Source: a virus
Lineage: Duplodnaviria; Heunggongvirae; Uroviricota; Caudoviricetes
DNA length: 42,002 nucleotides
IMG/VR virus record: IMGVR_UViG_2563366918_000005
Direction: 5' to 3' (one strand)
The position numbers and the translations under genes are program-made. A model generated the notes under the pieces. That model had not been told where the DNA came from. It saw nothing but the letters and a program-made list of their open reading frames with translations, and did no database searches. This document shows, one piece after another, positions 25,653-25,973 of this stretch (position 1 is its first letter; each line of letters opens with the position of its first letter).

Positions 25653-25973
25653 CAAAGAGTTCATTCCGGTTATTAACCTGACTGGCTTGTCGTTAAATTG
25701 AACAGGTGGAGTGAGCTTTTATTTTGAGCAGTACGGCGTATGGCACATGCGCCGATAGCGGTCTGGATACGTTTAAGGGGCACCCTCCCTTGCTCGGGCA
25801 AACGAACCAGGTAGCCGGAATGTGCAAGTCGAGCGGTTTTATTCCGCGCACGGGGATTCACCATCCCGGCGATTCGGTGTGACGCCTCGGAAGAGACGAG
25901 GGTACAACGATGAGAGCATTTATGGAGCCGCGACAAAGTGTGGCGCCTTAACAGGCTAAGTGCTCTCAGCGTT

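Follow-up and report, generated by a model that had tools for sequence, protein, structure and literature searches.

What occupies the roughly 320 bp that separate an operator-controlled promoter from a tRNA gene in a temperate phage of the epsilon15 type? The question is raised by IMG/VR record IMGVR_UViG_2563366918_000005, a viral DNA of 42,002 nucleotides (the whole stretch analysed, hereafter the window), which is a phiV10/epsilon15-like (Uetakevirus) prophage; over the region concerned, it matches phiV10, TL-2011b and the O157 typing phages 9 and 10 at 99% identity. A sequence-only reading of the window had left positions 25653-25973 unexplained, proposing that they hold a structured RNA transcribed together with the tRNA, or else a gene in decay. 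Here, I show that the interval encodes a structured RNA on the + strand, composed of a leader hairpin, a core of about 170 nt and a long hairpin, P6, which is fused to the tRNA-Arg. I regard it as close to certain that this RNA is real, structured and conserved, and that Rfam 15 lacks its family.

The non-coding stretch of about 320 bp lies where it had been described, between divergent promoters (25547-25651) and a tRNA-Arg(tct) gene (25974-26050), and both the promoter with its palindrome and the tRNA could be located. One point needs correcting: the feature runs past the tRNA as part of a conserved non-coding module that extends to ~26237.

Evidence for a folded RNA

The whole interval has a minimum free energy of -120.9 kcal/mol (z = -2.75), a value that none of 100 shuffles equals, so that the fold goes beyond chance. 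In a first alignment of nine diverse copies, invariant blocks alternate with stem-loops of variable sequence and length, in whose stems compensatory changes occur. The strongest evidence for the fold is covariation, scored over 28 base pairs that make up helices P1, P2, P4 and P5 and a pseudoknot joining the P4 loop to a downstream GGUG. A covariance model of the core (R1, 158 model positions) guided the alignment of 84 matches, 76 of them distinct (A3); scoring of a 42-sequence core alignment (A2) agrees with the resulting picture. Over the 76 distinct sequences of A3, canonical pairs fill 93.9% of the cells, against 28-52% when the partners are slid by one to three columns. Double-sided changes are seen at 14 of the 28 pairs (shuffle mean 9.7, with 14 reached in two of 500 shuffles), and the covariation score of 0.282, compared with 0.129 in shuffles, is reached by none of 500.

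The exchanges are readily seen in single pairs. Pair 25738:25750 of P1 occurs as G-C (37 sequences), A-U (36) and G-U (2); in P2, 25764:25809 is C-G (55) or U-A (20) and 25765:25808 is G-C (72) or A-U (3), and an inner pair of the variable stem-loop enclosed by P2 (VSL1), 25771:25803, occurs as G-C (70), A-U (16), C-G (2) and U-A (1). The P4 pairs behave alike, with C-G 63, G-C 12 and U-A 1 at 25854:25866, and A-U 47, U-G 20, C-G 8 and U-A 1 at 25856:25864, while four of the five P5 pairs change on both sides (e.g. 25888:25898, C-G 45 and G-C 21). In P6, the loop-proximal pair occurs as U-A, G-C, A-U and C-G, and both strands co-vary between variants. The pseudoknot is paired in 99.3% of cells, its pair 25859:25879 being C-G in 68 sequences and A-U in eight, with zero exceptions; because the pseudoknot is outside the covariance model used for the alignment, its covariation is an independent test. 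G-U pairs are abundant (U-G at the base of P2 in 75 of the 76 sequences, and at P1 in 72), and since they would read as A-C mismatches on the opposite strand, the RNA is assigned to the + strand. Covariation in five helices and the pseudoknot, the G-U pairs and the conservation across unrelated phages thus strongly support a structured RNA co-transcribed with the tRNA.

The interval might instead hold a protein-coding gene in decay, or a site in the DNA that serves recombination, replication or packaging. The only sizeable open reading frame in the interval, an 87-codon frame on the minus strand that starts with TTG (25673-25936), speaks for a gene, as do the small hypothetical proteins that some records annotate over the element. 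The sequence-only reading had noted no start signals for this frame, and it is not conserved as coding: variable alignment columns are spread 28/32/29 over its three codon positions. Indels and variable-loop lengths in the homologues take all values modulo 3, and no reading frame on either strand is open in all homologues. Coding potential was accordingly rejected for both strands on the grounds of periodicity, frame and indel length. With the compensatory changes and strand-specific G-U pairs pointing to selection on a + strand RNA, the data already contradict a decayed gene or DNA site, which deserves hardly any credence.

Distribution among phages and genomes

In a BLAST search against phage records, a core of ~245 nt (window about 25733-25977) is present in three unrelated phage groups. 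Identity is 82-83% in the lambdoid phages cdtI, mEp460, Ayreon and 2H10 and in Stx2c-, Stx2k- and some Stx2a-converting (Shiga toxin 2) phages; it is 77-81% over the first ~165 nt in P1, P7, D6, SJ46 and RCS47, and 70-77% in Klebsiella, Enterobacter and Salmonella phages, Klebsiella phage SopranoGao and a phage deposited as infecting Stenotrophomonas. Almost all of the matching phage records leave the element unannotated. About a third of complete E. coli genomes (1840 of 5426) carry it and none annotates it; the copies amount to 2474 places, up to four per genome, 554 of them on plasmids. The exact 19-mer GGTAGCCGGAATGTGCAAG is found in at least 120 IMG/VR contigs and in 24 species-representative genome contigs, 22 from Enterobacterales and 2 from metagenome bins, the Enterobacterales carriers including Kosakonia, Citrobacter, Klebsiella, Kluyvera, Phytobacter, Buttiauxella and Erwinia. 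The core is better conserved than its flanks across unrelated phages. Horizontal transfer has carried the family between temperate phages of Enterobacterales that belong to the epsilon15-like, lambdoid and P1-like groups. One of the loci compared (numbered with the prefix L), the viral contig L027, has two tandem core copies on the minus strand, at 4800-4960 and 3993-4155, some 650 nt apart, the second without the exact 19-mer.

Anatomy of the RNA

The core (25733-25903) consists of five helices (P1-P5), the P4-loop pseudoknot and an invariant 19-nt junction, GGUAGCCGGAAUGUGCAAG, all on the + strand. P1 (25734-25754) is a hairpin of 9 bp in which 25734-25742 pair with 25746-25754 around a GCA loop, and 97% of its cells are paired. 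P2 (25762-25811) pairs 25762-25766 with 25807-25811 and encloses VSL1 (25767-25806), which ranges from 26 to 50 nt across homologues and carries a CU-rich UCCYUUG motif in its loop. The junction (25810-25828), whose first two bases also close P2, is the signature of the family; it is unchanged in all nine BLAST-derived sequences, which were not selected by motif and which include P1, SopranoGao and phage BUCT708. There follows the variable hairpin P3 (25831-25849), drawn from sequence, folds and alignments, where GCGG (25833-25836) pairs here with CCGC (25844-25847); it is too variable for alignment and thus for the scoring of covariation. P4 (25853-25867) has 5 bp (25853-25857 with 25863-25867) and a UCACC loop, of which CACC (25859-25862) pairs with GGUG (25876-25879) to form the pseudoknot (25859-25879). 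P5 (25885-25901) pairs 25885-25889 with 25897-25901 around the loop GAAGAGA; one sub-family has a different P5, CCCAGACGAUAUCUGAG.

Two further pairings were considered and not adopted. RNAalifold proposes a long-range pairing of the P1 loop GCACAU with the junction AUGUGC; both sides of this pairing are invariant and so give no evidence for or against it, and covariation backs the local P1 hairpin. A GUGC/GCAC closure of P3 is seen in many members, but not in the cdtI/mEp460-type lambdoid or P1-like variants.

Long hairpins border the core on one or both sides in the loci compared. P6 (25904-25975, + strand) has ~17-18 bp with an extension and a variable tip (free energy -39.9 kcal/mol, z = -6.3), and its 3' strand enters the tRNA by two nucleotides (G1, U2); the variants of the element in P1-like phages lack it, as do some Salmonella types. 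The leader hairpin (25655-25722, + strand; -22.9 kcal/mol, z = -2.4) is a degenerate copy of the same type; its homologue is a clear P6-like hairpin in L009, and in Klebsiella relatives a clear second copy of the P6-type hairpin. The leader hairpin is optional: in L068, L124 and L075 it is missing and the core begins ~25 nt past the operator. The epsilon15 record labels the region equivalent to the leader hairpin as an RNase III processing site, and the leader hairpin is a putative RNase III site, as P6 is a putative RNase III substrate.

A CU-rich motif is found in two loops, that of VSL1 (25784-25792, UCCCUUG; columns ~45-60 of A2) and that of the terminator T1 described below (26108-26116, UUCCUUG). 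With its likeness to an anti-Shine-Dalgarno sequence, the motif could serve as a seed that pairs with ribosome-binding sites.

Promoter, tRNA slot and downstream module

The early promoter, as read on the + strand at 25615-25651, has a -35 box TTGACA (25615-25620) and a weak -10 box TACCTT (25638-25643) that is overlapped by the operator palindrome ATTACCTTTCAGGTAA (ATTACC-N5-GGTAA, 25636-25651); a strict promoter scan of the window does not list it. I infer a transcription start at ~25650. Given that the homologous palindrome is annotated in the epsilon15 record as a 'repressor, lysogeny' site, and that the palindrome is kept in all epsilon15-like loci compared, the description of the promoter as operator-controlled is a fair one.

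Beyond the core, a conserved order is followed: P6, the sequence GUUGUGG, a slot X, a hairpin AUCACG...CGUGAU, a DicF-like terminator (T1), a hairpin, a second terminator (T2) and the first gene. In the window and in Klebsiella phages the slot holds tRNA-Arg, here tRNA-Arg(UCU) at 25974-26050 on the + strand (found by ARAGORN; Rfam tRNA, 73.3 bits). In L098 (1077-1203, minus strand) it holds a tRNA with a long insertion, which scores 43.9 bits with the Rfam tRNA model and is not listed by ARAGORN within 1.5 kb of the motif. Most lambdoid phages have instead a domain of 90-240 nt closed by the helix GUUGUGGUG/CACCACAAC (L001, ~2750-2890), with hairpins at the positions of the D-arm and T-arm; this common lambdoid domain gives no Rfam tRNA match at E<=1, and calling it 'tRNA-like' is an observation about position and shape that does not imply homology. 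SopranoGao (L008) has two or three slot units in series.

The sequence-only reading had also mentioned a long tRNA leader, and it is very unlikely that the element is no more than that, i.e. a structured 5' leader which aids the folding or processing of tRNA-Arg and has no function of its own. The term suits the window, where the element abuts the tRNA and P6 covers its first two nucleotides. Over 130 loci, an adjacent tRNA is always abutting and on the same strand, and tRNA-Arg begins 164 nt past the start of the motif, or up to 229 nt with a longer P6. The term is nonetheless too narrow, because a tRNA is adjacent in only ~40% of these loci and ~60% have none within 1.5 kb. In P1-like loci, moreover, the tRNA is a different one, tRNA-Ile2, and it lies upstream, ending ~19 nt before the P1 helix, so that the tRNA gene is not always 3' of the element as in a 5' leader. 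The core also outlasts its surroundings in conservation across unrelated phages.

The small hairpin that follows (26053-26073, + strand; AUCACG-CCUAAGGAC-CGUGAU) is kept after both tRNA and non-tRNA slot domains at many loci. Next comes the DicF-like segment with the intrinsic terminator T1 (26083-26137, + strand), formed by a stem at 26094-26129 and a U run; the terminator scan gives it a 14-bp stem. The DicF model RF00039 gives 16.9 bits at 26083-26137 and 27.7 bits in L085; neither value reaches the gathering score of 48, which leaves a resemblance only, though the segment may be an Hfq-type small RNA (sRNA). In the P1 ban operon, where the core also occurs, a 'dicF-like region' is annotated, and the P1 sequence just 3' of the core, UUUCUGGUGAUGAC, presumably resembles the 5' end of DicF. 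T2 (26214-26237, + strand; GCCCGGUUCGCCGGGC followed by U7), found by the terminator scan and conserved in relatives, marks the end of the conserved non-coding module. In L009, L101, L044 and L059 the ribosome-binding site of the first gene lies roughly 5-10 nt after T2; a promoter has no room there, and read-through of T2 must be obligatory in these relatives. A strict count of terminators, confined to perfect stems, missed imperfect ones (those of cdtI, for instance) and failed to discriminate between the hypotheses discussed here.

With terminators 3' of a compact, aptamer-like fold that includes a conserved junction, a ligand- or tRNA-sensing leader (a riboswitch or attenuator) which sets termination at T1 and T2 comes to mind. 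Such a leader would be expected to adjoin its expression platform, but P6 and a tRNA, or a domain of 90-240 nt, separate T1 from the core; the downstream genes are unrelated between contexts, and P1 has no terminator. I accordingly give sensing a slim chance.

Genomic context and a possible role in antitermination

In all contexts examined except SopranoGao, where the element is placed after the lysis genes, it is in sense orientation within an early transcript that the phage repressor controls. In lambdoid phages it stands 100-260 nt 3' of the CI repressor gene and on the same strand, the upstream repressors being of at least eight mutually dissimilar types (helix-turn-helix plus S24 peptidase, or helix-turn-helix only). 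In several of these phages the element is at, or at most ~50 nt from, the predicted start of transcription from pL. The order in cdtI is the cI stop codon, a terminator, a promoter (TTGACA-16-CATAAT) over an operator, the element, two terminator-like hairpins and the first gene; the promoter is identified as pL/oL because the operator half-sites (ATGTACC-N5-GATACAT) recur in the cI-cro region. A second, divergent copy in the pR operon, which would be the analogue of the putR site of HK022, was found neither in the whole cdtI genome, where the element is single, nor in the window. The Ayreon record independently annotates a terminator and then a promoter directly upstream of the element. In P1 the element lies between trnI and ban, 2.3 kb into the ban operon, which C1 controls. 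In epsilon15-like phages it opens a small unit, inserted between the operons for portal and terminase, that comprises several non-coding RNAs and then one gene. The phage epsilon15 itself retains only P1 and the start of P2, joined to the 3' half of T1 through the shared sequence UUCCCUUGAUGCU (L005, 1548-1653; 38.8 bits with R1), and is a deletion derivative in which the VSL1 loop has apparently recombined with the T1 loop.

Such a location recalls the put sites of HK022 (putL and putR) and the putL-like element of HK639, which are likewise structured RNAs that work without a dedicated protein, stand at the start of the repressor-controlled early-left transcript of N-less lambdoid phages and have terminators 3' of them. 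The put RNAs render RNA polymerase resistant to terminators in cis, an effect that mutations in the zinc-binding domain of the beta' subunit block. The element could accordingly be a cis-acting processive antiterminator or anti-pausing RNA, the nascent core binding RNA polymerase to allow read-through of T1, T2 and later terminators; this is a real but distinctly less than even possibility. Similarly tentative is its proposed scope, in which the element would replace N/nut in N-less lambdoid phages as a functional analogue, not a homologue, of the HK022/HK639 put sites.

Several observations are in line with antitermination. Like put, the element is located just 3' of the early promoter and 5' of terminators: it is the first element after pL, beginning a few nt from the predicted start in L037, L117 and L016, and one or two intrinsic terminators follow it. 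The four relatives named above leave no promoter room between T2 and their first gene. No N-like protein was found among the first pL genes downstream, nor in the annotations of cdtI and Ayreon. The HK639 putL-like element occurs in the left operon only, which shows that such an arrangement is real. The put RNA is known to need no dedicated protein (PMC9378689), and the deletion in epsilon15 took the core together with the 5' half of T1.

The likeness to put does not, however, extend to size, structure or sequence. While put has ~70 nt (126 nt as annotated in HK639) in two stem-loops with a triplex, the element has 170-245 nt, five or six helices and a pseudoknot (158 model positions and five helices in the core model). 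A search of HK639 with R1 returned nothing, the HK639 putL sequence is dissimilar to the element, and homology between the two was rejected for want of sequence or model similarity. Unlike put, the element is also found in P1 and epsilon15-like phages, which have no evident need for antitermination: in P1 it lies far into the operon, with no terminator found between it and ban, and in the window a separate operator-bearing promoter serves the downstream gene, beyond which lies a convergent operon. The processing hairpins and the tRNA at the flanks would, furthermore, be superfluous for such a role.

A proposed discrete early RNA

The preferred reading, to which I would give slightly less than an even chance, is that the core is a discrete and stable early-lytic RNA which is cut from the leader and acts on a generic host target. 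After derepression, the leader would be the first sequence to be transcribed, as a small operon of non-coding RNAs. RNase III would then cut at the flanking P6-type hairpins and RNase P at G1 of the tRNA, 3' processing of the tRNA-Ile being the equivalent in P1, and these cuts would release a stable pseudoknotted RNA of 170-245 nt. The core would work as a protein-binding or decoy RNA early in lytic growth, without regulating any specific neighbouring gene. This discrete RNA is favoured because processing signals are present on both sides of the core, because the element is independent of the identity of the downstream gene, and because its complexity is typical of protein-binding or catalytic RNAs and not of Hfq-type sRNAs.

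A number of points weigh on the other side. The ends of the RNA are themselves predictions; terminators and then genes always follow the module, and together with the relatives whose genes have no promoter room this fits a role in cis no less well. Extended complementarity to a host RNA was not observed, all E. coli BLAST matches being further copies of the element, and the genomic context points to no protein partner. Finally, the core is dispensable, because the viable phage epsilon15 has lost it by deletion. Among more specific functions, those of a CsrA sponge, a sarcin-ricin-loop mimic and an RNase P-like RNA were dropped, as matching motifs are missing from the sequence.

The same surroundings could suit a self-cleaving or self-processing ribozyme that frees itself and the neighbouring tRNA or sRNAs from a polycistronic non-coding precursor, since the element has a complex pseudoknotted fold with invariant unpaired nucleotides in the junction and is always found among other RNAs which need end maturation. 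Yet there is no Rfam ribozyme match at E<=10, the host enzymes RNase P, RNase III and RNase E suffice for the processing, and P1-like variants retain the core without P6 or the downstream RNAs; a ribozyme is thus unlikely.

Relation to known RNAs

The discrete RNA favoured here has partial parallels among characterised phage RNAs. RNase III and RNase E release DicF, which is encoded in the dicB operon of prophage Qin; as proposed here, non-coding RNAs are cut from a repressor-controlled early prophage transcript, and the window leader has a DicF-like terminator hairpin. DicF, though, is an Hfq-dependent antisense RNA of ~53 nt, whereas the core is three times larger, pseudoknotted and without a recognisable seed or a terminator of its own. 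The c4 antisense RNA of P1 and P7 is likewise a phage regulatory RNA matured from a longer precursor, in this case by RNase P, but it is unrelated in sequence and structure, and C4 pairs antisense with a1/b1 targets, none of which is seen for the element. C4 and isrK occur elsewhere in the same prophage, as well as in mEp460 and cdtI. GOLLD and ROOL are complex structured RNAs of phages and prophages, often beside tRNA genes, whose function is not established; they differ in their size of ~600-800 nt and in being found mainly in Firmicutes and other phyla, and neither of these unrelated families, both in Rfam, was matched. Transfer-messenger RNA (tmRNA) and the Y-RNA-like YrlA share with the element a structured effector domain joined to a tRNA, or to a domain in the tRNA position, with an acceptor-like helix, but ARAGORN finds no tmRNA and Rfam neither tmRNA nor Yrl.

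The search with Rfam covariance models that the sequence-only reading had suggested found nothing in the interval. Rfam 15 (4227 models, including ribozymes, riboswitches, put-unrelated phage RNAs, Y RNA, tmRNA, GOLLD, ROOL and HEARO) gives no match within 25653-25973, whether the threshold is the gathering score or, under permissive filters, E<=10; among related loci, the element is unmatched in five, and at E<=1 in six, three loci being shared between the two sets. The empty search means that the element belongs to no known family, and does not imply the absence of an RNA. Membership tests failed for every family testable here, and the literature on prophage structured RNAs, P1 ban-operon RNAs and put-like antiterminators yielded no description of the element or its motif. 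A bulk prediction from IMG/VR viral contigs lists 8,495 candidate structured RNAs (Fremin and Kyrpides, 2023; PMC10690425), among which the element may be present without a name. It is, then, a new RNA family of a known general kind, that of structured RNAs in phage early leaders, and there is a real chance that its mechanism is new.

A bolder proposal, possible though clearly not the favoured one, is that the element founds a class of phage RNA not seen before, in which a compact pseudoknotted domain coupled to a tRNA or tRNA-position domain would directly reprogramme one of the core machines of the host as lytic growth begins. Under this proposal the target might be RNA polymerase, giving a second, structurally unrelated form of protein-free antitermination in N-less lambdoid phages, including Stx-converting ones, or else a tRNA-directed defence or translation factor, with the RNA serving as decoy.

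E. coli, P1 and lambda-like phages have been intensely studied, and yet a pseudoknotted RNA of ~170 nt has stayed unannotated in about one-third of complete E. coli genomes, its carriers including Stx2-converting phages, cdt phages and P1-like plasmids. The RNA stands at the very start of a repressor-controlled early transcript, which suggests that it acts within minutes once the prophage is induced. Should it modify RNA polymerase, this would explain how early terminators are read through in N-less lambdoid phages, some of them with Shiga toxin genes; if it acts in trans, it would be a new host-takeover or anti-defence RNA. In either case the element warrants an Rfam family, which would correct spurious 'hypothetical protein' calls in many phage records. 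Small hypothetical proteins are annotated over the element on either strand in L001 (2443-2811, mEp460_037), L132 (2511-2753, mEp390_036) and L160 (5061-5180, Ayreon), and they are probably false gene calls.

Other features of the window

A second promoter-like site (ATGACC-17-TATAAT, 26243-26271) with the same operator-type palindrome (ATTACCTTAAAGGTAT) lies 5' of the downstream gene at 26273-26617; L009, L101 and L044 are without it, and the ribosome-binding site is directly 3' of T2 there. In the window, the gene that starts at 26273 is interrupted by an insertion (~26537-27300) which I take to be a copy of IS1, with an InsA-like open reading frame (26974-27249) and an InsB-like one (26552-27055), both on the minus strand, and an IS1-type terminal repeat that begins near 26537. 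Elsewhere in the window, Rfam matches at the gathering score are STnc490 (1687-1810, minus strand), isrK (7115-7191, + strand) and C4 antisense RNA (7211-7298, + strand); the isrK-C4 pair recurs beside the antirepressor genes of mEp460 and cdtI, both of which carry the element.

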